Positions 1,109 through 28,778 of a stretch of 64,000 bases of DNA are shown in pieces; position 1 is the first letter of the stretch, and every line of letters begins with the position of its first letter. This DNA comes from Bacteroidota bacterium (lineage in GTDB: Bacteria; Bacteroidota; Bacteroidia; Chitinophagales; LD1): NCBI GenBank assembly GCA_947476645.1, contig CANJRM010000006.1, positions 3,146 to 67,145 of the forward strand, in the 5' to 3' direction. Both the position numbers and the translations under genes were made by a program. A model generated the notes under the pieces. It was not told the origin of the DNA and searched no databases. It saw only the letters and a list, made by a program, of their open reading frames with translations.

Positions 1109-1225
1109 TGTAAATTGTTTAAGGTAAAAATAGTTGGAAACGGCAATAACAGAAAATATTTACGCTGAACAAAAACACCTTGAGCTTTGTTTATTATTCA
1201 TACTTTCACAAAAACTATACATTCT

Positions 1226-2050
1226 ATGAAAAAGCTTTTTACTCTTTGCTCAGTTTTCCTGCTATTCTTTTTTGCAAAGGCACAGATTACCACCTTTCAC
1301 AACTTTATAACCTATTCCATAAACGGAGATACAATTGACCTGTCGCAGTATTACGGCAAAAAAGTAATGGTGGTAAATGTAGCCGCGCATTGTGGCTATA
1401 CTCCTCAATTCACACAACTTCAGCAGATGTACGACTCGTTTCAAACGCATAATTTTGAAATCATTGGTTTCCCAAGCGATGATTTTCACCAACAAGGCAC
1501 CGACTCAGAATTGATTGCTACCTGCGGTTCTTACAATGTTACTTTTCCTTTAACCGAAAGTGTGCATGTGAAAACAAATGCCTCACAGCATCCCATTTAT
1601 CAATGGCTTACTCATGCCTCGCAAAACGGAGTTTCTGACGCCACAGTAAGCTGGAACTTCAACAAGTTTTTGATTGACGAAGCCGGGCACTGGGTTCAAT
1701 ATTATTCGCAAAATACTTTACCCAACGACCAGGCCATTATCAATTGGATTCTTTCTCCTTCTGCTTTGGGAGTTTCTCCTTCAGTTAGTTTAGATGAGTT
1801 GATTGAAATGAAATCTTCTAATCCAACTTCTACTTCTATTGATTTTGTGGTTAAGAATTCGGGTTTAAAAAATCTGAACGTTCAATTGTTTTCGACTGCA
1901 GGAGATTTAATTGGTTCTGTTTACAACGGTTCAGTTGAAAGCAATCAAAACATCAGCTACTCGGTAAGTAATTTGGCTTCGGGAATTTACTTTGTAAAAA
2001 TTCAGGCTGACGGATTGCAGAAGACACTGCGATGCTCTGTCATAAATTAA
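1226..2050 (+). CDS. Glutathione peroxidase-family protein fused to a T9SS type A C-terminal sorting domain
   Basis: GPx motifs VNVAAHCGYTPQ (peroxidatic Cys), FPSDDFHQQ and WNFNKFLID. Signal peptide MKKLFTLCSVFLLFFFAKAQ starts at the internal ATG 1226. The C-terminal ~80 aa ends in GIYFVKIQADGLQKTL, which is CTD-like. Confidence 0.8.
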   Translation: MKKLFTLCSVFLLFFFAKAQITTFHNFITYSINGDTIDLSQYYGKKVMVVNVAAHCGYTPQFTQLQQMYDSFQTHNFEIIGFPSDDFHQQGTDSELIATCGSYNVTFPLTESVHVKTNASQHPIYQWLTHASQNGVSDATVSWNFNKFLIDEAGHWVQYYSQNTLPNDQAIINWILSPSALGVSPSVSLDELIEMKSSNPTSTSIDFVVKNSGLKNLNVQLFSTAGDLIGSVYNGSVESNQNISYSVSNLASGIYFVKIQADGLQKTLRCSVIN

Positions 2051-5113: not shown

Positions 5114-6283
5114 ATGAAAAAAACAGGATTGCTTTTTAGTTTGATGCTGACGTTGCAAATTTTATTTGCACAAAATGCTCCTGTAGCATACAACGATACT
5201 TTCAGCATCAACAAGAATATCACTACTGCTTTTTATGTAATCGCTAACGACTATGACCTTGATGGAGACCCGCTCACCATTACGATTTTAGTTTCGCCTC
5301 AGCATGGCACAGCTTCTGTTTCGGGCAATAACATTGTTTACATACCTTCATTAAATTATACCGGCAGTGATTCTATCACTTATGTTATTTGCGACACGAC
5401 TGACAAGTGTGATACAGCTACCGTTTTTATAACCATTAATGGAAGTAACAATCCTCCTGTAGCGAATGACGATAACTACTTAGTGCAGCAAAACATCAAT
5501 ACCATTCTTGCTGTTTCGAGTAATGACTATGACCCCGATGGCGATGCACTTACGCTTACAATTATAACACCTCCGCAACACGGCACGGCAACGGTGATTA
5601 ACACCACGCAAATTTTTTACTCGCCAACCAGTTTCTATTACGGAGTAGATACAATTGTTTATGTGCTTTGCGATAACAACAATCTGTGCGATACCGCTGT
5701 AGTTTATATTGTAGTAAATGGCTCTAACAATCCACCAATATCTGCTGATGACAGCTATAGTTTTACAGATTCTGTTTCGAGTAATGTGCTTTCAGTTTTA
5801 AATAATGATAGCGACCCGGAGAACGATACCATACACGTGACTCAGGTTTTTGATAATGATACGCTAAATAATCTTGGAGCTATAAGTTTAGAATCAGGCA
5901 ATGTAATATTTGCACGAAGTGCACTTGGTTGTGGAACAGAAACGTTTCAGTATTTAGTTTGCGATTATCAAATGTGCGACACAGGAAACATTACCATCAC
6001 AATTACTTGTCCCGATAATATTTTTCTTCCACAGGGTTTTTCGCCTGATGGTGATGGCAAAAACGACAAACTTGTTTTTACAGGTTTAGAATATTTTGCT
6101 CCTGCCACTTTAAAAGTTTTCAATCGTTACGGCTCTATTGTTTATGAAAACACGGAGTACAAAAATGATTGGAATGGGACGTATATTGAAAACGAGAAGC
6201 CTCTTCCTGACGGCACTTATTTTTACACGCTTCAGTTGAATGACAAAAGGCGCTACAACAATTACCTTATCATCAATCGTTAG
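5114..6283 (+). CDS. Secreted cadherin-like / tandem-95-type repeat protein with a T9SS type B (gliding-motility-associated) C-terminal domain
   Basis: Signal peptide, then three ~100-aa repeats (NxPPVANDD..., NDYDxDGDxLT, PQHGTA, YxPxxxYxGxDxIxYVxCD). C-terminal FSPDGDGKNDKLVF...FNRYGSIVYE...WNGT...LPDGTYFY. Confidence 0.85.
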   Translation: MKKTGLLFSLMLTLQILFAQNAPVAYNDTFSINKNITTAFYVIANDYDLDGDPLTITILVSPQHGTASVSGNNIVYIPSLNYTGSDSITYVICDTTDKCDTATVFITINGSNNPPVANDDNYLVQQNINTILAVSSNDYDPDGDALTLTIITPPQHGTATVINTTQIFYSPTSFYYGVDTIVYVLCDNNNLCDTAVVYIVVNGSNNPPISADDSYSFTDSVSSNVLSVLNNDSDPENDTIHVTQVFDNDTLNNLGAISLESGNVIFARSALGCGTETFQYLVCDYQMCDTGNITITITCPDNIFLPQGFSPDGDGKNDKLVFTGLEYFAPATLKVFNRYGSIVYENTEYKNDWNGTYIENEKPLPDGTYFYTLQLNDKRRYNNYLIINR

Positions 6284-6393
6284 TTGCCTGAATTCACACT
6301 TCTTATTTAAAAGGAGCGATTAGATTTTGTTGCTTACATTCGGCATCGTATTTTTCGACAGCGAATTATCTTCCACTACGTTTAAAATCGCAC

Positions 6394-9300
6394 ATGAAAA
6401 AAATTTTACTCGCCATTTCAACGGCTCTGCTATTTTGTTTTGCGCATGCACAAACACCTACATGGGCAACAGACATTGCTCCTATACTTTATGCAAACTG
6501 CGCTAAGTGTCACCACACTGGAGGAGCGGGACATTTTCCGCTCATGACATTTTCTGATGCTTATGCCAATGGATTCAATATGGCAAATGATGTGAGCAAT
6601 AAAATTATGCCTCCTTGGCCACCCGATGAAAACTACAAACACTTTGCTCATGAGCGCGTAATTTCACAAACTGATATTGATGCCATAAACAATTGGGTAA
6701 GCGGTGGAAGACCAATGGGAAATATTACACAGGCACCTACGCAACCAACTTATACCAACGGCTCTCAATTGGGCTCAGTAGATTTATCAGTTCAAATTCC
6801 AACTTATACAATTGGAGCTAATAACGATGTGTATCGTAATTTTCCAATCCCATCAGGATTACTACAAGGAAAATATATAACTGCTTTCGAAGTAATACCC
6901 GGTAATCCGATGATTGTGCATCACGTTCTTATTTTTCAGGATTCAACTAATGTTCCTGCCCAGTTAGATGCAGGTGATGCAGGCCCCGGATATACCGATG
7001 CAGGAGGAACAGGTTCGCTGGCTTCAAAATTAATTGGAGGATTTACTCCCGGTGCTTCACCTTATTACACACCAGTAGGTACAGGATTTCGTTTGCCTGC
7101 AAACACAAATATTGTTGTGCAGGTGCATTACCCGGCAGGTAGCCAGGGTTTGATAGACAGCACAAGAATTAATTTCAAACTTACTTCGGTTGCTCAGCGC
7201 GAAATCACGGTGTATCCCTTGGTTAATCATTTACAAAACATGACGAATGGTCCAATCAATATTCCTGCTAATACAACCAAGACTTACTACGAACAATACA
7301 ACATGCCTGCCACTAACTTTACTATTCTTTCGGCATTTCCACACATGCATTTAATTGGAAGAACCATTGAGTGCTTTGCTACTACTAGTATTCCTAACGA
7401 TACGGTTCGGTTTGTAAATGTTCCTGATTGGAATTTTCACTGGCAGGACACTTATGTTTTTCCGAATGCTGTGAAACTGCCTGCGAGTTCTATTATTAAA
7501 GCAAAAGCATTTTATGATAACACGGCAAACAATCCCGATAATCCCAATTCTCCACTCGCAGCAGTTCACGCAGGTGAAGGTACTACCGATGAAATGATGA
7601 TGGTGTTTTTTGGGTTTATGCCATATCAAAGTGGTGATGAAAATTTAATTATTGACCGAAGAGTAATTCCACAAGGTGCCACAACTTTTTGTTCGGGTCA
7701 ACAAGTTGTTCTAAAAACAATTGAAGGAACAGGTTATACCTATCAGTGGTATAAAAACGGTGTAAGCATAAACGGAGCAAATACTTTTTCTTACACAGCA
7801 ACACTAGCAGGAAATTATCACGTTATTATTTCGCTGGGGCCAAATACTTCAAACTCCGATACTATTGCGGTTAATGTAAGTGCTTCTCCTAATGCAATTA
7901 TTTCTGCTGCTTCAAATTCTTTTTGTCCGAATGGTTCGGTACAATTAAGTGCAAGCACAGGTAGTGGTTATACCTATGAATGGTTGAACAATGGAGTTCC
8001 AATCAACGGAGCAACTTCTTCTACTTATACAGCGAATGCAGCAGGAAATTATACTGTGCAGATTTATAATGGATGTTATGCGCTTTCATCTGCTACAACT
8101 ATTGCGGCAGCTTCTGCTCCTTCAAATGTTGTTACTCCTTCGGGGGCAACAACATTTTGTACGGGAGGTACTGTTTCTTTAAACGCAGCAAATGGGTTGA
8201 CTTATCATTGGAGCAACAACTCCACTACGCAAAGTGTTTCAATAAATCAAAGTGGTAATTACACGGTTACTGTTACTAATGCGAATAATTGCACAGCTGT
8301 TTCTTCGCCAGTAAGCGTTACGGTGAATACACTTCCTTCGGCTACTGTAACACCGAATGGTGCTACTGCTTTTTGCGATGGCAGTAGCGTAGTTCTATCG
8401 GCTGTTGCAGGATTAAATTATAGCTGGAGCAATAGTTCATCTGCATCTTCTATAACTGTTACACAAACCGGAAATTTTTCGGTGACTGTTACCGATGCAA
8501 ATACTTGTAGTGCTTCTTCGTCATCCATTCACGTAACAGTTAATCCTTTGCCAACCGCTTCTATAAGCGCAAGTGGAACTACTGAATTTTGTGATGGAGG
8601 AAATGTAACGCTCACTGCTGCCAATGCAACTTCATATTTATGGAGCGATGCTTCTACCACAGCTTCTGTCAATGCAACTGCAAGCGGAGATTATTCGGTG
8701 ACTATTACCGATGCAAACGGATGCACCAATTCAACTTTGCAAACAGTTACAGAGTTTCCGGTGCCCGATAATTCTATTACTACTGACAGACCCACAACTA
8801 TTTGCCCCGGTGAGAGTGTAACGCTTACTGCTGCCAACGGTATGAGTTATAGTTGGAGTAACAGTTCATCTGCACAAAGTATTACTGTTTCTGCCAATGG
8901 AGTTTTTTCAGTTACGGTTACGGATAGCCATAGCTGCACAGCAGTTTCTTCGCCTGTAACAATTGCTGTAAGTAACAACGCAGTTGCATCTGTTACGCCA
9001 TCGGGTGCAACAAATCTTTGCGAAGGTGGTTCAGTTCAATTGACCGCTTCATCGGGCGATGTATATCTGTGGAGTAACGGAGAAACTTCACAAACTATCC
9101 ATGTAAATGCAACAGGAAACTTTGCAGTTACAGTAACTACATCGGGAACTTGTGTGGCACTTTCAGATACTACTTATGTTGTTGTCAATTCAAATCCAGT
9201 AGTTTCTCTTTCAGGAAATATGGATACGGTTTGCAATTCTACAGGTATTATTTATTTGATTGGCGGAACACCTTTTGGTGGAACGTATTCAGGCAGCTCG

Positions 9301-9687
9301 GTTACAGGAACTTTTTTTGATGCTTCTGCTGCATTGCCTGGAACGAATACAATTACCTATATGTTTACCGATAACAACGGATGCAGCGGCTCTGCTACCG
9401 AAACAATTGAAGTGGAAGTTTGCACCGGAGTAAATGATTTAGCAACAAGCAGAATTCATATCTATCCGAATCCGAACAATGGAAATTTTGAAATTGATTT
9501 AGGAGAATCAAACAACGCAACTACTCAACTGAAAATAGTTGATGCCACCGGAAAAATAATTTTGAATCAATTCTTCAAGGGAAATAAAACTTCATTGCAG
9601 TTGAATGAAGTTGCGTCAGGAATATATCTGCTCGAACTGAAAACTGTTACAGAAACGCGAAGAACAAAATTGATAATTCAGAAATAG
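6394..9687 (+). CDS. Multidomain T9SS cargo: N-terminal c-type heme motif, PHM/DBH-like copper monooxygenase fold, ~9 Ig-like repeats and a T9SS type A CTD
   Basis: Signal peptide. CAKCH at 6499..6513 followed by IMPPW. HHVLIF, VQVHY, HMHLIG and GTTDEMMM occur in the order of the PHM CuH/CuM ligands. Repeats are ~75 aa with FCxG...Y.W...G.Y.V.V....C. The C-terminal end has IYPNPNNGNFEI...GIYLLELKT. Confidence 0.85.
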   Translation: MKKILLAISTALLFCFAHAQTPTWATDIAPILYANCAKCHHTGGAGHFPLMTFSDAYANGFNMANDVSNKIMPPWPPDENYKHFAHERVISQTDIDAINNWVSGGRPMGNITQAPTQPTYTNGSQLGSVDLSVQIPTYTIGANNDVYRNFPIPSGLLQGKYITAFEVIPGNPMIVHHVLIFQDSTNVPAQLDAGDAGPGYTDAGGTGSLASKLIGGFTPGASPYYTPVGTGFRLPANTNIVVQVHYPAGSQGLIDSTRINFKLTSVAQREITVYPLVNHLQNMTNGPINIPANTTKTYYEQYNMPATNFTILSAFPHMHLIGRTIECFATTSIPNDTVRFVNVPDWNFHWQDTYVFPNAVKLPASSIIKAKAFYDNTANNPDNPNSPLAAVHAGEGTTDEMMMVFFGFMPYQSGDENLIIDRRVIPQGATTFCSGQQVVLKTIEGTGYTYQWYKNGVSINGANTFSYTATLAGNYHVIISLGPNTSNSDTIAVNVSASPNAIISAASNSFCPNGSVQLSASTGSGYTYEWLNNGVPINGATSSTYTANAAGNYTVQIYNGCYALSSATTIAAASAPSNVVTPSGATTFCTGGTVSLNAANGLTYHWSNNSTTQSVSINQSGNYTVTVTNANNCTAVSSPVSVTVNTLPSATVTPNGATAFCDGSSVVLSAVAGLNYSWSNSSSASSITVTQTGNFSVTVTDANTCSASSSSIHVTVNPLPTASISASGTTEFCDGGNVTLTAANATSYLWSDASTTASVNATASGDYSVTITDANGCTNSTLQTVTEFPVPDNSITTDRPTTICPGESVTLTAANGMSYSWSNSSSAQSITVSANGVFSVTVTDSHSCTAVSSPVTIAVSNNAVASVTPSGATNLCEGGSVQLTASSGDVYLWSNGETSQTIHVNATGNFAVTVTTSGTCVALSDTTYVVVNSNPVVSLSGNMDTVCNSTGIIYLIGGTPFGGTYSGSSVTGTFFDASAALPGTNTITYMFTDNNGCSGSATETIEVEVCTGVNDLATSRIHIYPNPNNGNFEIDLGESNNATTQLKIVDATGKIILNQFFKGNKTSLQLNEVASGIYLLELKTVTETRRTKLIIQK

Positions 9688-9725
9688 AAAAAGTTGAGGA
9701 CGTTTAAGTTCGTCTTGTAAAGTTA

Positions 9726-9787
9726 TGTCACGCTGAGCTTGTCGAAGCGCATTGATAAAAATATCCTTCGACAAGCTCAGGATGACA
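9726..9787. repeat. Dispersed palindromic intergenic element (GTCAnnCTGAGCTTGTCGAAG...CTTCGACAAGCTCAGnnTGAC family), copy 1
   Basis: A ~22-bp inverted repeat around a ~17-nt loop, between convergent genes. A second copy is at 15411..15471. It probably also acts as a terminator hairpin. Confidence 0.8.
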
Positions 9788-9793
9788 TTCAGT

Positions 9794-11416
9794 TTACTGT
9801 TTTACTAAGCGAAGAATTTTGTTTGCTGAGGCAGTGCTAACTTCTACTAAATAAACTCCTGATGGCAAGTCAGCCGTTTTTAATTTGTTGTTCACAGGAT
9901 TCAATTCCTGCCAAATTAATTGGCCTGCTGCGCTGAGTATTTTTACTGAATATTTTTCTTCACCCACCATTTGCAATTTGCAATCGCTGTTTGCAGAAAC
10001 AGGATTCGGAAATAACCACACCTTCAAATCATCTGTAAGTTCTTCAACAGAATTTACCAAAGGCGGATTGTATTCTGCCAATACAATATCATTTACAGCC
10101 GCAAAATCCAAAGCAATACTTCCGTAAAAACCGGTATAAGAATAATAACCAGCCATAGCTACCACACCTGAATTGGAAACGGCTACTGAAAATCCGCAGT
10201 CAGTACTAACACCACCTGCAGTTGTAATCCATCGAACATTTCCCGATGGAGAATAACTCACTAAAAAAATATCGCGGTCGTAGGCATGCAAAACATTTCC
10301 GTCAAAATCAATCACGTCCTGATACATGCCCGTGGCAAAAATATTTCCATTGGCATCGGTGGTCACACCCCAACCAATATCCAACTGATGTCCTCTGCCC
10401 GCTCGCACCCATAAATTATTTCCTGCTGAATCGTAACGCGCTACAAATACATCATTGTAATCGCTATACGTAACCGTATGCGAATCAAAGTATGCAGTGC
10501 CCGCAAAATATCCGACTACGACAGCATTTCCATTGGCATCGCTGCAAACTCCGTGTGCTGCATCTTCATACGTGCTGCCTGCACGCTTTAGCCAATCGTA
10601 ATTTCCGTTAGCATCAATTTTGCTTAAAAAAATATCGTAACTCGAAGTGGCAGAATTGATATTGCCCGCACCTATTTTAAAATTACCTCCAAAATATCCG
10701 GTTACAAAAACAGAGTGGTCGTTATCAAAAGCCACTCCTGTAATCTGGTTGGCATTATTTCCTCTTCCCGATTTTGCCCATACCACATTACCTGCTGAAC
10801 TATATTTTGCAACAAATGATTCGTTGTAAAGATTGGTTGTAGAAAGATGAAAAGTGTCGAGCATCATATTGTATTCGTAAGAACCGCCTACGTAAACGCT
10901 TCCTGCGTTATCTACATCAACACTCATGCTTAAATCTGAATTTGCTCCACCCATTTGGCGCACCCAAACTAAATTTCCATCGGTCGTATATTTTGCCACG
11001 AAGCCATCTGCATCACCTTTGCTTAACAGCATCGTAGTTTCAAACCAGGCAGTATCGTTGAAATATCCGGTTACATACAAATAGCCGCTCTTGTATTTTA
11101 TGGAATTGCCTGATTCGTTATCGTCACCACCGGCAAGTTTTACCCAAACCACATTTCCCTGTGGGTCATACTTGGTAATAAACACATCAAAAATTCCTCT
11201 GCCTTGCGCACCAATGCCTGAAAAATTTGCACCACCTGCAATATTTCCCGTTACGTAAGCATTGCCCTGTTCGTCAAGTGTGATGGAGTTAGCAGCATCG
11301 CTGCCTATACCGCCCTCTCCTTTAGCCCATGTCCACGATTGTGCGCTGCCGATACCAGATAAGAAGAGCGAAAAGAGTAAGAGTAGATTTCTGTTCAAAG
11401 TGATTTGGGTATTCAA
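9794..11416 (-). CDS. SBBP-type beta-propeller repeat protein with T9SS type A CTD
   Basis: Signal peptide. About 8 repeats of the pattern GN.VW.K..GG...D.G..I..D..GN.YVTGYF. C-terminal LFPNPVS...GVYLVEVST. Confidence 0.8.
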   Translation of the reverse strand: MNTQITLNRNLLLLFSLFLSGIGSAQSWTWAKGEGGIGSDAANSITLDEQGNAYVTGNIAGGANFSGIGAQGRGIFDVFITKYDPQGNVVWVKLAGGDDNESGNSIKYKSGYLYVTGYFNDTAWFETTMLLSKGDADGFVAKYTTDGNLVWVRQMGGANSDLSMSVDVDNAGSVYVGGSYEYNMMLDTFHLSTTNLYNESFVAKYSSAGNVVWAKSGRGNNANQITGVAFDNDHSVFVTGYFGGNFKIGAGNINSATSSYDIFLSKIDANGNYDWLKRAGSTYEDAAHGVCSDANGNAVVVGYFAGTAYFDSHTVTYSDYNDVFVARYDSAGNNLWVRAGRGHQLDIGWGVTTDANGNIFATGMYQDVIDFDGNVLHAYDRDIFLVSYSPSGNVRWITTAGGVSTDCGFSVAVSNSGVVAMAGYYSYTGFYGSIALDFAAVNDIVLAEYNPPLVNSVEELTDDLKVWLFPNPVSANSDCKLQMVGEEKYSVKILSAAGQLIWQELNPVNNKLKTADLPSGVYLVEVSTASANKILRLVKQ

Positions 11417-11508: not shown

Positions 11509-12351
11509 TTATTCTGTTATAGAAAATCTGCGAGTGGTTACGTTCTTTCCATCGGTAATAGAAAGAAAATAAACGCCTGCGGGTAAATTGTTGCGTTCAA
11601 CTGAAGTGCTGTTCACTCCAATTTTTGCTTCAAACTCATTTGATGAAACCGCTTTGCCTGTAACATCAGTGATGCGGATTGTGTAAACCGCATTTTTTGC
11701 AGAAACAAACGAAAGTGTTGCATTAGTGTTCATTGGATTTGGAACAAATTGTAATGAAGAAAACACATCCGATACTTCAATCACATTTGAACCTGCGCAT
11801 GTAGCACCTGTTGAATTCAGGTTAGTAGCATTTACCGAAGTATCTACACTGGCACAAGCACCAGCGGCAGTTTTAACTCTTATGAAAAGACGAATTCCTG
11901 TTTGGTCAACTAGGTTTGCAGGAATATCCTGTGGAGTAGCTCCACCGTTAATCCAAGCTCTTAAGGTTAAAGCAAATTTGTATTGACCTGCAGCATCGGT
12001 TGTTGTTCCCTGAATTCTTAAGAATCCATCTTCACTTGCCGAATATCTTTTGTCAGCCTGGTCAGTTCCCCAACACAAACCGCAAGGTAAATTGTCAACC
12101 CCAAGAAACTGAATGCTATCTACGTTCTGATGTCCTAAGAAATCAAAAGCTGAATACATCGTGAACTGAATATCGTGTGTATAAGCCGTGCCCTGAACAA
12201 CACAGGGTGTAAGGTCAGGAGCGTCAAACCCGCCACTTGCAGGACCTCCTAGAGGTGTTCCGGTAGTAGCTGAAGAACATACCTGACTGCTGGCTGTGAA
12301 ATTTAAAAATACAAGGGCAATAAATGAAAGTGTAGAAATTACTTTTCTCAT
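11509..12351 (-). CDS. Secreted T9SS-CTD protein, member 1 of a local paralog family
   Basis: Signal peptide. Shares the NLPCGLCW / IxGTTxDxGxYK / IRVK motifs with the next gene. CTD has FVPNPMNTNATL...GVYFLSITDG. Confidence 0.8.
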   Translation of the reverse strand: MRKVISTLSFIALVFLNFTASSQVCSSATTGTPLGGPASGGFDAPDLTPCVVQGTAYTHDIQFTMYSAFDFLGHQNVDSIQFLGVDNLPCGLCWGTDQADKRYSASEDGFLRIQGTTTDAAGQYKFALTLRAWINGGATPQDIPANLVDQTGIRLFIRVKTAAGACASVDTSVNATNLNSTGATCAGSNVIEVSDVFSSLQFVPNPMNTNATLSFVSAKNAVYTIRITDVTGKAVSSNEFEAKIGVNSTSVERNNLPAGVYFLSITDGKNVTTRRFSITE

Positions 12352-12456: not shown

Positions 12457-13317
12457 TTATTCTGAAATAGTGATACGTTTAGTAAGGAAAGTTCTTTCGC
12501 TTCCAATAGTATAGAAGTAGATGCCTGGAGCAAGAGTACCTCTGTCTAATGTAGAAATATTTTCGCCAGCTTTTACTTCAATTTCTTTGTTGTAAACTTC
12601 GCTGCCAATCATGTTAGTTACTCTTTCTGTAACAGTCATTGTTTTTTCAGAGAAGAATCTAACAGTTGCTTTGCTGGTAAAAGGGTTTGGAACCACACTC
12701 AATTCGCTCATTGGATTGCCCAAATCCTGAATTCCAACACCTGAACAATTAGCATTAGCTGAATAACCAGCCGGTTTAGAAAACGCTACTGCTTGTGAAG
12801 TATCTAATGCTACATCAGCATCTCCGTTGTTTTTCACGCGCACATAGTATTTCAAACCTACTGATTCTGCATTGATAGGAATAGCAACTCCTAAACCAAT
12901 ATCAACTCCTACACGGATAAACAATTTGTAAACACCAGGGTCGCTACAAGTAGTTCCGGTTACTTTGATACAACCTTCTTCTTGATTGTTGTAAGTGTTA
13001 TTAGTATGATTAGTAGCCCAGCACAAACCTGCAGGTAAGTTACCGATAGAGTCAATTTTTAATGTTTGAACTGTAACTAAGTTACCTTGGTATCTTGCGG
13101 TATCGTAGTTTTTGAATTGGATTACAGTTGTTGAAACAACACCATTGATAACCGGAGCTAAGCTATCAGATGTTGGTCCTAAGCCCGGCTTTGTTAGCGA
13201 ACCATCAGGAGTACATTGTGTAGGTCCTGATGGGGTACCATTATGACCGCAGTACTGCGCGTATGAGTTACCATACAAAAGGCAGAAAGATAAAAGTGTA
13301 AAAATTAATTTCTTCAT
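12457..13317 (-). CDS. Secreted T9SS-CTD protein, member 2 of the local paralog family
   Basis: The start is taken at MKKLIFTLLSF (13317). A TAcaTTTG -7-like box at 13348..13355 (minus strand) lies inside the longer ORF, which argues for the shorter start. Motifs NLPAGLCW and CTD VVPNPFTSKATV...GIYFYTIGS. Confidence 0.8.
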   Translation of the reverse strand: MKKLIFTLLSFCLLYGNSYAQYCGHNGTPSGPTQCTPDGSLTKPGLGPTSDSLAPVINGVVSTTVIQFKNYDTARYQGNLVTVQTLKIDSIGNLPAGLCWATNHTNNTYNNQEEGCIKVTGTTCSDPGVYKLFIRVGVDIGLGVAIPINAESVGLKYYVRVKNNGDADVALDTSQAVAFSKPAGYSANANCSGVGIQDLGNPMSELSVVPNPFTSKATVRFFSEKTMTVTERVTNMIGSEVYNKEIEVKAGENISTLDRGTLAPGIYFYTIGSERTFLTKRITISE

Positions 13318-13416
13318 AAAGTTGTTCGTTTTAATTATTGAATTACACAAATGTAATGAATCAATTTGTTTTTAGAACAAATTTTATTCACAAATATTTA
13401 TAACAGAGTGACGGCT

Positions 13417-15321
13417 TTATTGAACAACTACCTTGGAGTTCAATCGGCCTTTTGCGGTTTCTAAAACCACAAAGTAAACACCTTTGTTCAGTGCTGTTAA
13501 GTCTAACTCTTCGGAATAATCGCCTGAGAAGTTTTGAATAGGCTTGTCAACCACCACCTGCCCAATCATATCTTCAATATGCAGGCGAATGTTCTGTGCT
13601 TCTTCTGCCGTAAATTTCAAGGTGAATTTTCCGTTGTTAGGGTTTGGATAAACACTTAAGTTGTAGATAGAGTTGAAAGAAATTTCTTCAAAGCCGGAAA
13701 CGTTAACGGTATCTGGACTTGCTAAAGTGCGGCAAGAAGGATAAGCCACGCTATAAACTTCGGCAGTGTAAACGCCATTACCTAAGTAAGCAAGAAATTT
13801 TCCATGCTGACCTACCACTAAGTTTCCATTGTAGAACCAATCAACCGCCAATCCCGAAGGGAAAGGAGTTACGAAAGCAGATGTGCCGTTGAAAATAACA
13901 CTGATACTTGCCGGTGGCGATTGAATTCTCACCACTGTTTTCCATTCAGATTCTGCCGAACAGCCCGTTGTCTGATTGGTAACTTTAACTTTGTATTTCC
14001 CTGCTAAATTGGTATAGAAAGCAGAATCATTTACACCATTGATATAAATGGTATCGCGATACCATTCGAAATTGCAACCCGGGTAACCATCACCAATAGA
14101 AAGGCGTGTGCTATCGGTTGAGCAAATAGTATCGGCTCCTGCTAAAATTACAGGAGTAACAGGTGTTGGGTTTACGATAACATGTAAGGTGTCGCTTAGC
14201 ACAATTCCCGGTATAGTATCGAAACGAACATTGCCGTTGGCATTGTTTGTATTACCTGCTAAAACCTGAAGACCTAAACCAACAGTGCAAGTCATAGTTT
14301 CTAAATCATCATCTGCCAAACCAAAGAGAGCAATAGTGGTAGATGAGTTTCCGCAGAGGTCATCATCCCAAAGTTCCATGCTTAAAGAAGTTGTGCCGAA
14401 AGGAACAGGATAGTTTAGGTTATTCCATGAAGGGGTTGTAGTTGAAGGAGCCGAATTGCTGCAATCGTTTGTAGTGCCTAATGCCCCAACAACCATATAT
14501 GGCTCGGGGTCTTGAATAGCCGATGCTTCGTTCCAGTCAGAATACCAGCCGTGGTTTATACCATAGATACTGATTGACTTAACAATGTATTGATAAAAGA
14601 CAGTGTTCAGAATAATATCAAAGGTATCGGGAACACTGGTTGCATTAGTGAAATGATAAACGCCAGGGTCTTTGCCTTCGTAAGGTGTGCCGTCAATGTT
14701 CCAATACCAACGGGTGAGGTTTGGCAATTGAGCGGTACGGGTAGCGTGTAAGTCAACGGTAATACTATCACAAGCACTTGAACCATTGTTGCCATAAGTA
14801 AAGGTGGTTACACCTAACACTGTATCGGGCAATACATAAAGGGTATCGTAATACTGCTGTGCTACATTGTTTTGGTTTACATCGCCAATGGGAGTTCCAT
14901 GTGCAGTTACATCGGCATAAAGATGCACAGCTATTGGATAAACACCAGCCACTAAAGCAGTACCACAAAAATGCGCACAGCCAATAGAATCTCCGTTTTC
15001 TACATCGAAATAACTATTGTTTGAAATTACATAACTGATGCCACCCGGCAAACCGCTTATTCCCGCTACTGTAATATGCCGAAGGTTTACCGAATTACAC
15101 TGACACAAAGCCAACACACTTGGGTCGGTCAATAGCTTAGGCATAAAAAAGTTTAGGAGTTTATCGTAAGGATGGTTGGCATAAGCGGTATCTAAACGAT
15201 TGCACAAACCACCATTTGGAGGGCAAGTGATAAATGCCGGTGTACACATAGAACACTGCGCATTAATTTGCTGAATACTGAATGCAGAAACTACGAGTAA
15301 AAAGAGAATAAATTTTTTCAT
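13417..15321 (-). CDS. Large secreted T9SS-CTD protein, a distant member of the same family
   Basis: The start is taken at MKKFILFLLVVSAFS. It has a GISGLPGGISY motif, an Ig-like module (CSTDSTRLS...YxWY...G.Y.V.V) and CTD VYPNPNNGKFTL...GVYFVVLET. Confidence 0.8.
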   Translation of the reverse strand: MKKFILFLLVVSAFSIQQINAQCSMCTPAFITCPPNGGLCNRLDTAYANHPYDKLLNFFMPKLLTDPSVLALCQCNSVNLRHITVAGISGLPGGISYVISNNSYFDVENGDSIGCAHFCGTALVAGVYPIAVHLYADVTAHGTPIGDVNQNNVAQQYYDTLYVLPDTVLGVTTFTYGNNGSSACDSITVDLHATRTAQLPNLTRWYWNIDGTPYEGKDPGVYHFTNATSVPDTFDIILNTVFYQYIVKSISIYGINHGWYSDWNEASAIQDPEPYMVVGALGTTNDCSNSAPSTTTPSWNNLNYPVPFGTTSLSMELWDDDLCGNSSTTIALFGLADDDLETMTCTVGLGLQVLAGNTNNANGNVRFDTIPGIVLSDTLHVIVNPTPVTPVILAGADTICSTDSTRLSIGDGYPGCNFEWYRDTIYINGVNDSAFYTNLAGKYKVKVTNQTTGCSAESEWKTVVRIQSPPASISVIFNGTSAFVTPFPSGLAVDWFYNGNLVVGQHGKFLAYLGNGVYTAEVYSVAYPSCRTLASPDTVNVSGFEEISFNSIYNLSVYPNPNNGKFTLKFTAEEAQNIRLHIEDMIGQVVVDKPIQNFSGDYSEELDLTALNKGVYFVVLETAKGRLNSKVVVQ

Positions 15322-15410
15322 TTTTATTTTTTGAGCCGCCAAATATAAAGATGTAATTTAAATCGGTTTGGTGGCATGGTACGGTTGTAATAAGAAAGGG
15401 CATAAGCTAA

Positions 15411-16035: not shown

Positions 16036-18525
16036 GTGAAGAAATCTCTAGTGCGCACTCTTGCATTGTCTTGTGTCTTCTGTCTTGTGTCTCTTGTCTC
16101 AAAAGCGCAGTGGGTTACCATACCCGACACGGCATTTGTATCCTACCTGCAAGCTACTTTCCCTGCCTGCATGAATGGAAATTTAATGGATACTACTTGT
16201 AGTGGAATTGTAAATGCTCATGGGGTTTATTGTAGTCATAGAACACATCTGAGAGACCTTACAGGAATAGAATACTTTGACAACTTAGATACACTGAATT
16301 GTTCTTATGATTCGCTGACATCTATAGGTTTACTGTCTAATACTATAAGATGGATAAATTGCTCAAACAATAAACTGAGCAGTTTATTGATGCTGCCAAA
16401 TTCTTTAACGGAACTCTTGTGTGAGTTCAACAAATTAACGACTCTACCTATTTTACCGAATGGTTTGATTTGTTTGTATTGCAGTGTTAATCAGTTAGTC
16501 AACTTACCTGTATTGCCAAATTCTTTGTATAGGCTTTATACGGACCAAAATCAACTTTCAAGTTTGCCAGTATTGCCAGATTCCTTGTTTGAAATTTATT
16601 GTGATGAAAATCACCTCACAGTTTTACCCGCTTTACCTAACACGTTGCGTGGTTTAAATTGTACTAATAATCAACTAACTGTGTTACCTCCTTTACCAAG
16701 TTTATGGTCTTTACAGTGTGGCAATAATCAACTTTCTGTTTTGCCAGTCCTACCTGATTCTATTTCTATTTTTTCTTGTAATAATAATATTCTCACAAGT
16801 TTACCCTCGCTGCCAGTCTTTTTATACGGTAGATTCAATTGCCGAATGAACCAACTTTCGATTTTACCTGCTTTACCCAATCGGGTTACGGAACTTTTTT
16901 GCGACCATAACCAACTAACGAGTTTACCCGAACTTCCAGATTCGTTATATTATCTCTATTGCAACAGCAATCCAAGCTTAATGTGCATGCCAGAATTAAA
17001 AAAGGTAATGGATTTTAGGTTCGATAGCACTGGAATTATATGCCTTCCCAATTATCCTCGCTCAAATACATACAGCAGTCCCTCGCTTACTTCAGTTCCC
17101 CTCTGTGACCCATTCAACACCAACGGCTGCTCCGTATATTGGAACATCAACGGCAAAGTTTACAACGATACCAGCGGCAACTGCCTAAAAGATATAGGCG
17201 AAACCAACGTGCAGAATATGAAGGTAAATCTGTATGAAAACGGTGTGCTTACTCAGCAAAACTACAGCGGTGGTTATGGTATTTATTCTTTTTATACCGA
17301 CACAGGCACCTTTGAAACTACCGTAGATACCACAGGAACTCCCTTTGATATTCTTTGCCCCGTAAGTCGTTTTGATACTTCGGTTATTACCGCGCTTGAT
17401 TCTTTTGATTACAATATGGATTTTGCCATGCAGTGCAAGCCTGGTTTTGATGTGGGGGTTTGGTCGGTGGTTCCTAATACTTCTATTCGCCCCGGAGCTT
17501 TGGTTCACCTGGCGGTGAGTGCAGGTGACTGGGCAAAGTTTTGGGGGCAAACCTGCCATACCGAAAATTTAAGCGGGTTGTTTCAGATGACTATCGGTGG
17601 TCCTACTACTTATATTTCGCCCGAGCCGGGTGCTCTTACGCCTGTGGCAGCGGGCAATGTGCTTAGCTATACTATAGCCGACTGGGCTGCCATTGACCCG
17701 CTTACTGCGTTCAATGTTATTATACAGGTAGACACTTCTGCGTTTGCGGGTCAGTATTTTTGTGTGGCGCTTTCGGTTAACCCTTTTATTGGTGATAACA
17801 ATTTTGCTAATAATGTGCTGCAACTTTGCGAGCCCGTAGTTAACTCTTATGACCCTAATGTGAAAGTGGTTTACCCCGCGGGCGATTGGGATACTTTGTT
17901 GCAGCCGTGGTTTACCTATACTGTTCGTTTTCAAAACACGGGCAACGCTACCGCCCAGCATATTTATGTAACCGATACGCTGGATACTGATTTAGATGCG
18001 TGTTCTTTTCAATTGCTGGGTTACAGTCATGTGCCCATGATTGAAATAAAAGAAAATGCTGTGCGATTTAATTTTCCCAATATCAATTTGCCCGATAGTA
18101 ATGCGAATGAGTTGGCGAGTCACGGTTATGTGCAGTACCGAGTGAAAATGAAACCGGGTCTTGCCACGGGAACGCACATCAACAATACCGCGTTTATTTA
18201 TTTTGATTTTAATGCGCCCGTGGTTACGAATACTACGAACAATACGATTACGAATGCAACGGGCATCAAAGAGTTCGGAATGCAGAATTTAGAATTCAGA
18301 ATGAATCCAAATCCGACCTCCACAGCGGTAAATATTTCTGTTGATGATGAAATGATTGGAAGTTCACTCACTGTTTATGATGTAACCGGAAGAAAGATGG
18401 CGGGTGTTGAACTGAAAACTTTAAACTACAAACTGGAAACTTCTGCCTTTGCGACTGGTGTTTACTTTGTTACTATCGAAAGTGAGAAAGGACGAATTAC
18501 GAAGAAGTTGGTGGTGGAGCGTTAG
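16036..18525 (+). CDS. Leucine-rich repeat (short bacterial IpaH/YopM-type LPxLP LRR) protein with a central beta-rich domain and T9SS type A CTD
   Basis: GTG start followed by signal peptide MKKSLVRTLALSCVFCLVSLVSKAQ. About 12 repeats of 20-22 aa (L..LP.LP..L..L.C..N.L). CTD has MNPNPTSTAVNI...GVYFVTIESEKG. Confidence 0.85.
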   Translation: MKKSLVRTLALSCVFCLVSLVSKAQWVTIPDTAFVSYLQATFPACMNGNLMDTTCSGIVNAHGVYCSHRTHLRDLTGIEYFDNLDTLNCSYDSLTSIGLLSNTIRWINCSNNKLSSLLMLPNSLTELLCEFNKLTTLPILPNGLICLYCSVNQLVNLPVLPNSLYRLYTDQNQLSSLPVLPDSLFEIYCDENHLTVLPALPNTLRGLNCTNNQLTVLPPLPSLWSLQCGNNQLSVLPVLPDSISIFSCNNNILTSLPSLPVFLYGRFNCRMNQLSILPALPNRVTELFCDHNQLTSLPELPDSLYYLYCNSNPSLMCMPELKKVMDFRFDSTGIICLPNYPRSNTYSSPSLTSVPLCDPFNTNGCSVYWNINGKVYNDTSGNCLKDIGETNVQNMKVNLYENGVLTQQNYSGGYGIYSFYTDTGTFETTVDTTGTPFDILCPVSRFDTSVITALDSFDYNMDFAMQCKPGFDVGVWSVVPNTSIRPGALVHLAVSAGDWAKFWGQTCHTENLSGLFQMTIGGPTTYISPEPGALTPVAAGNVLSYTIADWAAIDPLTAFNVIIQVDTSAFAGQYFCVALSVNPFIGDNNFANNVLQLCEPVVNSYDPNVKVVYPAGDWDTLLQPWFTYTVRFQNTGNATAQHIYVTDTLDTDLDACSFQLLGYSHVPMIEIKENAVRFNFPNINLPDSNANELASHGYVQYRVKMKPGLATGTHINNTAFIYFDFNAPVVTNTTNNTITNATGIKEFGMQNLEFRMNPNPTSTAVNISVDDEMIGSSLTVYDVTGRKMAGVELKTLNYKLETSAFATGVYFVTIESEKGRITKKLVVER

Positions 18526-24529: not shown

Positions 24530-25933
24530 ATGACGCATTCTTTACAACAAACAATTAAACAAGAGATTTCGCTCACAGGCGTTGGCTTGCACACGGGTCA
24601 AAACGTGACGGTGAAATTTCTTCCTGCCCCGCCTAACCACGGCATCAAGTTTCAGCGTATTGATTTACCTGAAAAGCCCATCATCAATGCCGATTGCGAT
24701 TTAGTTACTACCGTTCAGCGCGGAACTACTTTAGAGAAAGGAGCGGCTATGGTAGCCACAGTAGAGCATTTAATGAGTGCCCTCATTGGTATGCAGGTTG
24801 ATAATTGTTTAGTGCAGGTGGACGGCATAGAAATTCCAATCATTGACGGAAGTGCCCGATATTTTGTTGAAGCTTTAGAGAAAGCCGGCATTCAGGAACA
24901 AAGCGAAGAGCGCGATATTTTTGAATTGCGTCAGAACATTCATTATGCAGATAAAGACAGTGGCGTTGAATATCTAGCCATGCCTTCGAACCGTTATAAA
25001 GTTACTGCACTCATTGATTACAAAAGCGAAGTCCTCGGTCAGCAACATGCTACCATGGACAAGATGAACGATTTCAAAAAAGAAATTGCTCCAAGCCGCA
25101 CGTTTTGCTTTTTGCATGAACTCGAAATGTTGTATGAAGCAGGTTTAATACGCGGTGGCGATTTGAACAATGCGATTATAGTAGTTGACAAACCTGTTAG
25201 CGAAGAAGAGCGCGTGAAACTCGCAGCCCTCTTCAACAAGCCCGATATTAAAGTAGTAGAAGAAGGCATTCTGAACAATGTGGAATTACATCATCACAAC
25301 GAGCCTGCCCGCCATAAACTTTTAGATGTTGTAGGCGATTTGGGATTGATAGGAACTCCAATCAACGCCAACATCATAGCCACCAAACCCGGACACAAAC
25401 ACAATGTGGAGTTTGCCAAAATTTTAAAGCAACACATTAAACAGGAACGATTGAAAGACCCTGCTCCGGCATACGACCAAAACGTTCCTCCTGTTTACGA
25501 CTCTACAGGCATCGAAAAAATTCTTCCGCACCGTTATCCGTTTTTGTTGATTGATAAAATTATTTCGCTCAACGATAACGAAGTGGTGGGCGTAAAAAAC
25601 GTAACCATGAACGAAGAGTTTTTTCGTGGTCACTTTCCCGGCAATCCGATAATGCCCGGTGTGTTGCAGTTAGAAGCCATGGCACAAACAGGTGGTATTC
25701 TCGTTTTGCATAAACTTCCCGACCCGCAGAACTACGATACTTACTTCATTAAAATCGACAAAGTAAAATTCAAACATAAAGTAGTGCCGGGCGATACCAT
25801 TCTTTTTAAAATGGAATTGCTTTCGCCTATGCGCAGAGGAATTATTGAAATGAAAGGTCGCGCTTACGTGGGTAATAAATTGGTTAGCGAAGCCGAACTG
25901 ATGGCAAAGATTCAACGCAAAGACGGGAAGTAA
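24530..25933 (+). CDS. lpxC/fabZ: Bifunctional UDP-3-O-acyl-GlcNAc deacetylase / 3-hydroxyacyl-ACP dehydratase
   Basis: LpxC N-terminal half (GVGLHTGQ, HKHNVEF) and FabZ hot-dog half (LPHRYPFLLIDKI, FFRGHFPGNPIMPGVL) in a single 467-aa ORF. Confidence 0.93.
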   Translation: MTHSLQQTIKQEISLTGVGLHTGQNVTVKFLPAPPNHGIKFQRIDLPEKPIINADCDLVTTVQRGTTLEKGAAMVATVEHLMSALIGMQVDNCLVQVDGIEIPIIDGSARYFVEALEKAGIQEQSEERDIFELRQNIHYADKDSGVEYLAMPSNRYKVTALIDYKSEVLGQQHATMDKMNDFKKEIAPSRTFCFLHELEMLYEAGLIRGGDLNNAIIVVDKPVSEEERVKLAALFNKPDIKVVEEGILNNVELHHHNEPARHKLLDVVGDLGLIGTPINANIIATKPGHKHNVEFAKILKQHIKQERLKDPAPAYDQNVPPVYDSTGIEKILPHRYPFLLIDKIISLNDNEVVGVKNVTMNEEFFRGHFPGNPIMPGVLQLEAMAQTGGILVLHKLPDPQNYDTYFIKIDKVKFKHKVVPGDTILFKMELLSPMRRGIIEMKGRAYVGNKLVSEAELMAKIQRKDGK

Positions 25934-26847: not shown

Positions 26848-27150
26848 TTACCCTCGCAAAGCCTCGGGTCGGGCTTTCACTGCAATCTTTTTTGAAACAA
26901 AAAAGGATTTCCGTTCTATCCCTAACCCGAATACAAACAGCCGGTTCTGTCTTTTGTATTTGCATTTGTCTCCCGCTGGCGGGAGTGGCACGCGGCTCTG
27001 CGCGTGACGAGGGTGGAATGCATTTGCTCGAACAAATACTAGAAACAGAAAATTCCTTACGGAGTTAAATCCAAATTTGTATTTGCTCCAGCGGAGCATT
27101 CTATTTGTAGAAAATGAAAAACACAAATCACTCACGCTCCGTAGGAGCCG
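26848..27150. repeat. Cluster of short GC-rich hairpin motifs in an intergenic region
   Basis: Examples are CTCCCGCTGGCGGGAG (26970..26985), CACGCGGCTCTGCGCGTG (26989..27006), CCTCGGGTCGGGCTTTCACTGCAATC and CGCTCCGTAGGAGC. The 95-aa track ORF here has non-protein-like composition. Confidence 0.55.
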
Positions 27151-27155
27151 TCAGG

Positions 27156-28778
27156 TTACATCTTTACCCACCTTCTCTTTACACTACCTTCTTTAGTTTT
27201 TATTTCGGCTATGTAAACACCTTGCGCCAACTGGCTAACATCAATGTTTTTGTTTTGCAATTGTGTGGCTTGGTTTACCAAAGCACCAGTAATGTTGTAA
27301 ATGTTTACTAGTTGCACTTCTGTCCCATTGGTTTCTAAAAATAATTGGTCGGTAGTTGGATTTGGATATATTTTAAAGGCAGTCGTGCTTTCAGTTTCAT
27401 TTATGTTTGAAACCACTCCTAATTTAACTATCCAGAAATCTGATGCATTATCCTCCCCATGATAGCCACTTCCAGCACTACCGTGATGTCCAGTTACGTC
27501 ACCAGTAATCGATTCTGAAAAACCTGCAACAACGTAACCCCCGTCTAAAGATTGAATAACAGAATATGCCTCCTCAGAACCTTCACCACCTAATGCTTTT
27601 TGCCATTGTATATTTCCGTTAGCATCTAATTTTACAACCCAATAATCTTGAGTAAAACATCCACTACATCCAATTCCATGATGTAGGCCTGTTACATCAT
27701 GATCGTCAGACTCAGTCCACCCACCTACAATGTATCCTCCATCTGTCGTCTGTTGTATAGAGTTCGCTTCGTCATTGTATATGCCCCCAAGTGATTTTTG
27801 CCATTGCAGAATTCCTGTACTGCTTAATTTCATTACCCAATAATCTTCGCCACCTAAATTTACAGTAACATCTCCGTCATTTGATCCAGATATGCCTGCT
27901 ACAATATAACCACCATCTGTAGTTTGCTGGACAGCACGTGCCTCATCTGCACCATAGCCACCAAAACATTTTTGCCATTCTATACTGCCTGATGTGTCTA
28001 CTTTCACAATCCAATAGTCGCTACTTACACCTACATTATGACCTGTAACATCACCATCAAAAGAGCCAGTTAAACCCGCCATGATATATCCGCCATCAAA
28101 TGTTTGCCCAATAGACATTACTCTATCTGCACCATTACCACCTAAGGATTTTTGCCATTGAATATTTCCTGATGCATCTAATTTTACTAACCAGTAATCT
28201 GATGAAGAACCATGTAGCCCTATTACATCACCATCTGTGGAAACTGGTATCCCAGCTACAATGTATCCTCCGTCAGTTGTCTGTCGTACATCATAGCTAA
28301 TATCTACACTTGATCCACCTAGCGTTTTTTGCCATTGTATATTACCTATTAGCCCTAATTTCACAATCCAAATGTCATGTTGCGGATTACCACTGTTGCC
28401 ATGATGACCTGTTACATCTCCGTTAAATGAGTCAGCGTATCCTGCAACAATATAACCACTGTCCTGTGTTTGATGAATAGAGTAGGCAAAATCAGTATTC
28501 GTTCCACCAAGCATTTTCTGCCATTGGATAGCACCTAAACTATTTAACTTTACTATCCAATAATCCCAGAAAAATCCACTATGTAACCCTGATGCATCTC
28601 CGCTATTTGATAAAGAATACCCCGCAACAATATATCCTCCATCGTAAGTTTGCTGGATTGACCTTGCAACCTCGCCATTTGATCCACCCAATGATTTTTG
28701 CCACTCAATATATGGTGCTTGAGCAGCAATACATAACGAAAATATTAGCGGAAAGAAAAGAGAAAAAATATTTTTCAT
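27156..28778 (-). CDS. Beta-propeller-like repeat protein (WQK...GG...DGGYIVAG...GDVTG...DYWIVKL repeats) with T9SS type A CTD
   Basis: Signal peptide, ~9 repeats of ~50 aa, and CTD IYPNPTTDQLFL...GVYIAEIKTKEG. Confidence 0.8.
   Translation of the reverse strand: MKNIFSLFFPLIFSLCIAAQAPYIEWQKSLGGSNGEVARSIQQTYDGGYIVAGYSLSNSGDASGLHSGFFWDYWIVKLNSLGAIQWQKMLGGTNTDFAYSIHQTQDSGYIVAGYADSFNGDVTGHHGNSGNPQHDIWIVKLGLIGNIQWQKTLGGSSVDISYDVRQTTDGGYIVAGIPVSTDGDVIGLHGSSSDYWLVKLDASGNIQWQKSLGGNGADRVMSIGQTFDGGYIMAGLTGSFDGDVTGHNVGVSSDYWIVKVDTSGSIEWQKCFGGYGADEARAVQQTTDGGYIVAGISGSNDGDVTVNLGGEDYWVMKLSSTGILQWQKSLGGIYNDEANSIQQTTDGGYIVGGWTESDDHDVTGLHHGIGCSGCFTQDYWVVKLDANGNIQWQKALGGEGSEEAYSVIQSLDGGYVVAGFSESITGDVTGHHGSAGSGYHGEDNASDFWIVKLGVVSNINETESTTAFKIYPNPTTDQLFLETNGTEVQLVNIYNITGALVNQATQLQNKNIDVSQLAQGVYIAEIKTKEGSVKRRWVKM

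Follow-up and report, generated by a model that had tools for sequence, protein, structure and literature searches.

What kind of protein is encoded at positions 6394..9687 of a 64,000-nucleotide stretch of the Bacteroidota contig CANJRM010000006.1 (hereafter the window), where a cytochrome c motif, the metal-binding motifs of the copper monooxygenases PHM and DBH, immunoglobulin (Ig)-like repeats and a type IX secretion system (T9SS) sorting domain follow one another in a single gene? A first-pass annotation, made from the letters of the sequence, had read the product as a self-contained surface or extracellular copper monooxygenase fed with electrons by a covalently fused heme domain, and our analysis largely supported this interpretation. 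We recomputed the positions of the motifs, all of which lay where the annotation had placed them within an intact open reading frame (ORF; table 1), and the identical 1097-aa protein was present on 7 public metagenome contigs. We proposed that the gene probably encodes a T9SS-exported redox enzyme, in which a mono-heme cytochrome c domain is joined to a non-coupled two-copper monooxygenase core of the PHM/DBH type.

We addressed the homology of the core by comparison with the copper type II ascorbate-dependent monooxygenases (PF01082 plus PF03712, clan CL0612), which hold two copper ions per chain about 11 A apart and use ascorbate as the reductant. In the window protein, Cu2_monooxygen (PF01082) matched aa 133-246 (E 1e-3; 19.7 bits against a gathering threshold of 30) and Cu2_monoox_C (PF03712) matched aa 298-408 (E 5e-3; 16.7 bits against 23), in the correct order. 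At E<=0.01, the former matched all 30 aligned relatives (best E 9.5e-10) and the latter 29 of them (best E 4.7e-9). A profile of these 30 sequences matched PHM (E 1.9e-7) and human DBH (E 2.2e-6) in the PDB, whereas a single-sequence search yielded weak cytochrome c6 matches only, PHM being reached with the family profile alone. The alignment to the rat PHM catalytic core by hhalign (probability 95.9%, E 5.9e-9, 247 columns) placed the HH, QVHY, HxH and DEM motifs in register; except for its last ~60 residues, the PHM sequence used there agrees with the alignment from the PDB profile search. Thus, the family assignment that had been predicted from the motifs held at the level of the family profile and of the relatives, although not for the window protein scanned by itself.

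The predicted structure pointed in the same direction. The AlphaFold2 model of residues 1-439 had a pLDDT of 80.9 and a pTM of 0.75, with the core mostly above 85, and in a Foldseek search against the PDB the top 31 matches were all PHM or DBH (E 5.5e-15 to 3.5e-11; TM-score 0.59-0.72, by target), with nothing else matching convincingly. Below them stood only double jelly-roll viral capsids (birnavirus VP2, E ~1e-5, TM-score 0.15). PHM is described as a double jelly-roll protein, and we attributed the capsid matches to the double jelly-roll relationship discussed in that work rather than to a shared function (PMC8812541). Judged by its modelled fold, by profile homology and by all six ligands, the core is a divergent member of the PHM/DBH family.

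Both the profile and the hhalign alignments set the candidate copper ligands of the window protein against those of PHM one by one. For the CuH-type site, H176 and H177 aligned with PHM H107 and H108, and H245 (in VQVHY) aligned with H172 (in LQVHY); for the CuM-type site, H317 and H319 aligned with H242 and H244, and M401 of the DEM motif aligned with M314 of the same motif in PHM. In addition, the equivalents of PHM Q170 and Q272 were conserved as Q243 and Q351. The ligand order that the first-pass annotation had cited for PHM was therefore borne out, with all six candidate copper ligands in register and invariant in the relatives.

The depth of this conservation could be assessed because relatives were abundant. 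With the N-terminal 439 aa as the query, at least 1915 relatives were found, and a HMMER scan with the core only, run against 1.84 billion representatives (clusters at 50% identity), returned 6478 clusters at E<=1e-3, 3627 at E<=1e-10 and 568 at E<=1e-30. Of the full-length sequences within the best 150 representatives, most had a core starting at about residue 125-135, with the cytochrome domain ahead of it. The gene was carried by at least 572 species-representative genomes, and nearly all of the best 80 bore a Bacteroidota label (Chitinophagales, Saprospiraceae, Flavobacteriales and the cultured Flavipsychrobacter stenotrophus). A second and larger clade, comprising at least 5623 proteins labelled Planctomycetota where they were named, contained the two-domain module at ~30% identity to the window protein (blastp E 9e-63); its members carry database names such as 'ascorbate-dependent monooxygenase' (P0315, Tundrisphaera lichenicola, so named by NCBI) or 'redoxin family protein' (P0389, Isosphaeraceae). 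In two metagenome-assembled genomes, one labelled Chitinophaga pinensis (L074, 3222..6331) and one of an uncultured bacterium (L076, 4357..7581), two full-length cytochrome c plus PHM-like plus sorting domain copies stood in tandem with their ligands intact.

The ten proposed ligand residues, that is, C36, C39, H40 and M72 for heme and the six for copper, were invariant in all 30 aligned sequences, in about 199 genuine Bacteroidota-type members among the 205 sequences examined, and in 120 of 120 sequences of the Planctomycetota-type clade. The six exceptions in the set of 205 were truncated ORF calls (L054 and L073) or apparent paralogs without ligands (L023, L029, L030 and L071), which proved to be unrelated proteins linked through their Ig repeats only. 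Since, by our own estimate, a CXXCH motif is expected by chance only ~0.005 times in a protein of 1097 aa, and since the ten residues are invariant in these ~199 and 120 relatives, the motifs are not a product of chance. The Planctomycetota-type proteins, which are likewise uncharacterised, share with the window protein the cytochrome c plus PHM-like module, the ten ligands, the MPPW and W101 residues and the Y-D-N..N..N-P loop described below (in 120 of 120 or nearly so), but they have neither a T9SS sorting domain nor Ig repeats; what they have instead are EF-hand-like tails, redoxin domains at the N-terminus or a module duplicated in tandem. By sequence comparison, the conserved unit is thus the cytochrome c domain plus the PHM-like core, joined by a conserved linker. 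This fusion is constant while the accessory parts and the cellular destination vary, which is the best available argument that the cytochrome and copper domains work together.

A further feature of the family lay directly before the methionine of the CuM-type site. The loop beginning at Y374 was ~8 residues longer than its PHM equivalent, as seen from the gap in the hhalign alignment; Y374, N376, T377, N380, N383, P384 and P387 were invariant in the 30-sequence alignment, and Y374, D375, N376, N380, N383 and P384 were conserved in the Planctomycetota-type clade. On sequence grounds, this Y-D-N-T..N..N-P loop is a signature of the family, and its deep conservation beside CuM suggests that it forms part of a defined substrate pocket.

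The loop bears on the alternative that keeps the heme and both coppers but makes the protein a surface electron-transfer protein or an oxidase rather than a substrate-hydroxylating enzyme, either reducing O2 or peroxide or passing electrons from a substrate through copper and heme to an external acceptor. Several observations would fit such a role: residues that bind a substrate could not be made out, no partner gene was conserved across 84 loci, thioredoxin-fold (redoxin) domains were fused to the module or lay next to it in relatives of the Planctomycetota type, and a T9SS-targeted glutathione-peroxidase-like gene in the window hints at a link to peroxide or thiol redox chemistry. However, the full His2-Met site of CuM, which in PHM, DBH and tyramine beta-monooxygenase is the hallmark of O2 activation for C-H abstraction, was strictly conserved together with Q243 and Q351, and the loop by CuM suggests a pocket for a defined substrate. 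We therefore considered this alternative unlikely, while regarding it as the most serious of those weighed.

The neighbourhood was surveyed by clustering the ORFs of the 84 loci in an all-against-all blastp comparison. No neighbour recurred beyond local synteny, and no operon partner, chaperone or substrate gene was found among the 84 loci; one cluster present in 10 of them was an antisense ORF within the gene itself, and two contexts inspected singly gave the same picture. The peroxidase-like gene (1187..2050, plus strand), 4.3 kb upstream of the monooxygenase gene, encodes 287 aa with a glutathione peroxidase domain (PF00255, E 6.8e-24; AhpC-TSA, E 1.8e-6) followed by a T9SS type A sorting domain (E 4.3e-9), and its product resembles a secreted thioredoxin-fold peroxidase. 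Given the redoxin domains fused or adjacent to the module in the Planctomycetota-type relatives, a functional link of this gene is conceivable; a neighbour of this kind did not recur in the other 83 loci.

For the nature of the N-terminal domain, support was weaker than for the copper core and came from several sources. Its predicted layout (helix 24-35 with CXXCH directly at its end, helices 53-68, M72-P-P-W and helix 92-103 with an invariant W101) follows the usual order of class I cytochromes c. M72-P-P-W75 and W101 were invariant alongside CXXCH, also across clades only ~30% identical. The methionine noted in the first-pass annotation as a candidate axial ligand was present 32 residues past H40, and as M72 is invariant and its position fits, it may serve as the distal (sixth) heme ligand. 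In the window protein, Cytochrome_CBB3 (E 0.011) and Cytochrom_C (E 0.031) both matched below threshold; among the 30 relatives, Cytochrome_CBB3 matched 7 and Haem_bd 2 at E<=0.01; and the family consensus matched Haem_bd at E 7.4e-6 (26.4 bits against a cutoff of 27) and Cytochrome_CBB3 at E 2.3e-4. A profile of this domain only, searched against the PDB, matched c-type cytochromes almost exclusively, including a c555 trimer (7e-5, summed over the repeats), CcoP (0.012), c6 (0.07) and the heme domain of hydrazine synthase alpha (0.06), where the alignment took in the CXXCH helix as well as the one at the C-terminus. Relatives in the JGI data bear names such as 'mono/diheme cytochrome c family protein' and 'cytochrome c553'. 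Taken together, these sequence features make heme binding by the N-terminal domain likely.

Against this stands the alternative that the CXXCH domain carries no heme and serves a structural, disulfide or metal-handling role, with a small-molecule reductant feeding the copper core directly. Every cytochrome profile match fell below its curated threshold, and the fold search with the model of the domain (pLDDT 88 for the domain modelled alone) was not significant; AlphaFold2 models made without heme, however, often fail fold searches. The invariance of C-x-x-C-H, M-P-P-W and W101 at ~30% identity, the nearly exclusive matching of c-type cytochromes, with both helices of hydrazine synthase alpha aligned, and the class I order of the secondary structure argue against a heme-free domain, and we gave this alternative little credence. 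The cytochrome c motif and domain claimed at the outset were accordingly retained on the strength of consistent, if sub-threshold, profiles and of the invariant CXXCH and M72, whereas the fold search lent them no support.

We then considered whether the protein could be a genuine bacterial peptidylglycine alpha-hydroxylating monooxygenase, hydroxylating the C-terminal glycine of secreted peptides as the first step of their amidation. Among solved structures PHM comes closest, it also gives the best match to the profile, and all the copper ligands as well as the Q170 and Q272 equivalents are conserved. However, the residues with which PHM holds the peptide carboxylate are not: R240 corresponds to F315, a variable position (A/F/G/S in Bacteroidota, T/A/S/G in the Planctomycetota-type clade); N316 corresponds to M403, with L or M in the family and mostly L; and Y318 corresponds to F405, with Y and F about equally frequent, or G/A/H. 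Moreover, no PAL (lyase) domain was found in a Pfam scan of the window neighbours or in the recurrent neighbour families, and DBH fitted about as well as PHM. Because the carboxylate-binding residues R240, N316 and Y318 are not conserved, the substrate is predicted not to be a glycine-extended peptide, and thus to differ from the peptidylglycine of PHM; orthology to PHM was ruled out on these substrate-binding residues, and a true PHM activity seems very improbable.

The termini of the protein indicated export. The N-terminus is a probable Sec signal peptide by inspection of the sequence, and the following Q20 was conserved in at least 90% of the relatives; a glutamine after the signal peptide is typical of Bacteroidota. 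At the C-terminus, PF18962 (E 7.8e-14; 52.2 bits against a cutoff of 27) and TIGR04183 (E 3.2e-13; 49.5 bits against 23) both matched above their curated cutoffs, in agreement with the type A T9SS domain recognised by the first-pass annotation, and the domain was carried by 27 of the 30 aligned relatives. The Ig-like repeats of the annotation were also present, but they numbered eight instead of about nine: by self-alignment, two repeats of 78 aa each (421-498 and 499-576) were followed by five of 72 aa up to residue 936, and then by one divergent module.

Such a stalk is present in this protein but is not a feature of the family. The median length of family members was 529 aa, corresponding to the cytochrome c domain, the copper core and the sorting domain without Ig repeats; about one quarter were near 650 aa, with two Ig modules; and lengths of 1100-1240 aa were reached by no more than the window protein and a few of its close relatives (L004, L005, L007 and, at 81% identity, P0121). 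Because so few proteins are this long, the Ig stalk is best regarded as a lineage-specific addition. The idea that the protein is mainly a surface adhesin with a decayed, non-catalytic binding module at its N-terminus, which its eight Ig-like modules, its sorting domain and neighbouring T9SS cargo genes with cadherin or Ig repeats might suggest, was ruled out as an exclusive explanation and deserves next to no weight, since most family members lack any Ig repeats and all the catalytic ligands are invariant, which is unexpected for a decayed module.

On the basis of established pathway knowledge and of the signals found in this protein, we proposed that the pre-protein would cross the inner membrane through Sec; that in the periplasm the cytochrome c maturation system would attach heme to C36 and C39 and copper would be loaded; and that the folded holo-protein would leave through T9SS, directed by its type A sorting domain, to the cell surface or the medium, with its eight-module Ig stalk. 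The steps that follow are drawn from homology and ligand conservation. The His/Met heme would receive single electrons from an external donor and hand them to the CuH-type site (H176, H177 and H245), from which they would pass to the CuM-type site (H317, H319 and M401) for O2 activation and C-H hydroxylation of a bound substrate other than peptidylglycine, as in PHM and DBH. The heme domain would thereby stand in for the ascorbate, and for the upstream cytochrome b561, of the animal enzymes.

Several points weigh against this proposal of a heme-fed, T9SS-exported copper monooxygenase. The window protein by itself falls below the Pfam gathering thresholds for both copper domains and for all cytochrome models, and Foldseek found no significant match for the isolated N-terminal domain (best c6A/c6, E 2.7-4.2, TM-score 0.35). 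To our knowledge, no donor is known that could pass electrons to a cytochrome located past the outer membrane; no conserved neighbour suggests one, the commonest neighbour being present in only 9 of the 84 loci; and literature searches brought up no T9SS cargo described as carrying heme covalently.

Comparison with characterised enzymes placed the protein more precisely. PHM, the catalytic core of PAM (PDB 1PHM, 1OPM and 1SDW), shares with it the two-jelly-roll fold (Foldseek TM-score 0.65-0.72), profile homology and the six ligands, at ~17% sequence identity. PHM has the R240/N316/Y318 triad and a PAL partner domain, both missing here, whereas the window protein has the additional conserved Y-D-N-T..N..N-P loop and a covalently fused cytochrome c-like domain before the core. 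It is bacterial and predicted to be secreted by T9SS, while PHM is found within the secretory-granule lumen, and the window protein is unlikely to be reduced by ascorbate. In the group of DBH, tyramine beta-monooxygenase and MOXD1 (PDB 4ZEL), DBH fits about equally well in profile (E 2.2e-6) and in fold (Foldseek E 5.5e-15), and like the window protein it has an extra N-terminal domain ahead of the copper core. That domain is a beta-sandwich DOMON, relatives of which bind heme in other proteins, in contrast to the alpha-helical CXXCH domain of the c-type cytochrome kind found here; the window protein also has no dimerisation domain, and its substrate pocket is unrelated to that of DBH.

Precedents for a cytochrome c tethered to a copper site are provided by cytochrome c-fused copper nitrite reductases and caa3-type oxidases, and the cytochrome domain of cellobiose dehydrogenase (CDH) reduces the copper of lytic polysaccharide monooxygenases (LPMOs) extracellularly. 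These cytochrome-fed enzymes follow the same design logic, with a built-in or docking heme domain delivering single electrons, and the likeness is one of mechanism, not of family: their copper domains (cupredoxin, CuA and the LPMO histidine brace) are unrelated, and none has the PHM/DBH fold. No tethered cytochrome c precedent was found for the PHM/DBH fold.

The first-pass annotation had held this architecture to be uncharacterised in bacteria. Full-text literature searches yielded no description of a bacterial PHM-like enzyme or of a cytochrome c fusion, and according to one paper PHM is common across eukaryotes and PNGase F across bacteria (PMC8812541). Even so, the architecture is abundant, and it could already be seen through precomputed Pfam matches and database names; the novelty lies in its recognition and characterisation, not in the sequence itself. 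With this restriction, we tentatively raise the possibility that the protein represents the first self-contained heme-driven member of the PHM/DBH family, a class of bacterial oxygenases, extracellular or periplasmic, that had so far escaped recognition, and the first T9SS cargo on record to carry heme covalently.

Table 1. Coordinates in the window of the monooxygenase gene and of the features read from its product
Feature	Residues	Position	Strand	Basis or remark
Whole gene: signal peptide, cytochrome c-like domain, PHM/DBH-like two-copper core, 8 Ig-like modules, T9SS type A sorting domain, in this order	1097 aa	6394..9687	+	Intact ORF
Probable Sec signal peptide, MKKILLAISTALLFCFAHA, followed by Q20	1-19	6394..6450	+	By-eye reading of the sequence
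Mono-heme c-type cytochrome-like domain	20-120	6451..6753	+	Profile matches, predicted secondary structure
CAKCH, putative heme c attachment motif	C36-A-K-C39-H40	6499..6513	+	H40 would be the proximal ligand
IMPPW	71-75	6604..6618	+	M72-P-P-W75 at 6607..6618
PHM-like N-terminal jelly-roll domain with CuH-type site (H176, H177, H245)	~125-265	6766..7188	+	
HHVLIF	176-181	6919..6924 (His pair)	+	
VQVHY	242-246	7117..7131	+	H245 at 7126..7128
PHM-like C-terminal jelly-roll domain with CuM-type site (H317, H319, M401)	~266-420	7189..7653	+	
HMHLIG	317-322	7342..7350 (H-M-H)	+	H317 at 7342..7344, H319 at 7348..7350
Loop Y-D-N-T-x-x-N-x-x-N-P-x-x-P	from Y374	7513..7554	+	Directly before the CuM Met motif
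GTTDEMMM	396-403	7579..7602	+	DEMMM (399-403) at 7588..7602, M401 at 7594..7596
Seven tandem Ig-like (PKD/BiPBP_C-like) repeats	421-936	7654..9201	+	Self-alignment; Pfam PKD and BiPBP_C matches
Eighth, divergent Ig-like module	937-1015	9202..9438	+	Weak Bact_surface_Ig-like match at 981-1007
T9SS type A C-terminal sorting domain	1023-1095	9460..9678	+	PF18962, TIGR04183

No clear promoter element of the Bacteroidota type was seen upstream of the gene. The window is dense in T9SS cargo genes, with at least 8 others bearing a sorting domain, among them 5114..6283, 9794..11416, 11509..12351, 12457..13350, 13417..15342, 16036..18525 and 27156..28778. Directly upstream lies the gene of a Big_9/cadherin cargo whose sorting domain is of type B (CHU_C), and at least 6 other cargoes of the window have a type A domain; the N-terminal parts of the latter are mostly without a Pfam match, except for one with DUF7619 and one with SBBP repeats.

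A different setting was observed at the locus of a distant relative on a Logan contig (SRR21362870; L085, 435..19195), where three cytochrome c plus PHM-like modules lay inside a nonribosomal peptide synthetase cluster with Condensation, AMP-binding, PP-binding and thioesterase domains and a sulfotransferase domain. One module was located in a 584-aa protein (6228..7982) and two stood in tandem in a 1064-aa protein (8001..11195), all with EF-hand-like tails, and a redoxin gene (5582..6205) adjoined them. Judged by this single cluster, these modules may be tailoring hydroxylases of a natural product or peptide.

Three other features of the window were recorded. A 1543-aa ORF on the minus strand (40185..44816) combines LVIVD repeats (E 4e-45), collagen triple-helix repeats (E 5.5e-14) and Peptidase_S74 (E 2e-6), the 'chaperone of endosialidase' domain that is typical of phage tail fibres or spikes and unusual in the chromosomal setting found here. 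A Flavo-1 RNA motif (RF01705) at 26863..26936 on the minus strand, the sole Rfam match in the window (47.5 bits against a gathering threshold of 42, E 4e-7), fits a Bacteroidota origin. The ORF at 24530..25933 on the plus strand is an LpxC-FabA/FabZ-like fusion (PF03331, E 2e-88; PF07977, E 7e-31), a bifunctional layout that Bacteroidota typically have.

The animal enzymes PHM and DBH, responsible for the amidation of peptide hormones and for the formation of noradrenaline, are textbook examples, and the passage of electrons across the ~11 A solvent gap between CuH and CuM is debated. A soluble bacterial version with a built-in heme donor would let electron entry be triggered and tracked optically, and it could yield catalysts for ascorbate-independent C-H hydroxylation. 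A further question that it poses is how electrons would reach a cytochrome on the far side of the outer membrane. If our proposal is correct, a very large new branch would be added to the PHM/DBH family, and a class of enzymes spread over thousands of Bacteroidota and Planctomycetota lineages would carry out ascorbate-free hydroxylation of an environmental or envelope peptide, natural product or polymer. In common freshwater and soil Bacteroidota and Planctomycetota, such a secreted O2-activating copper enzyme may aid the turnover of organic matter, as LPMOs do.

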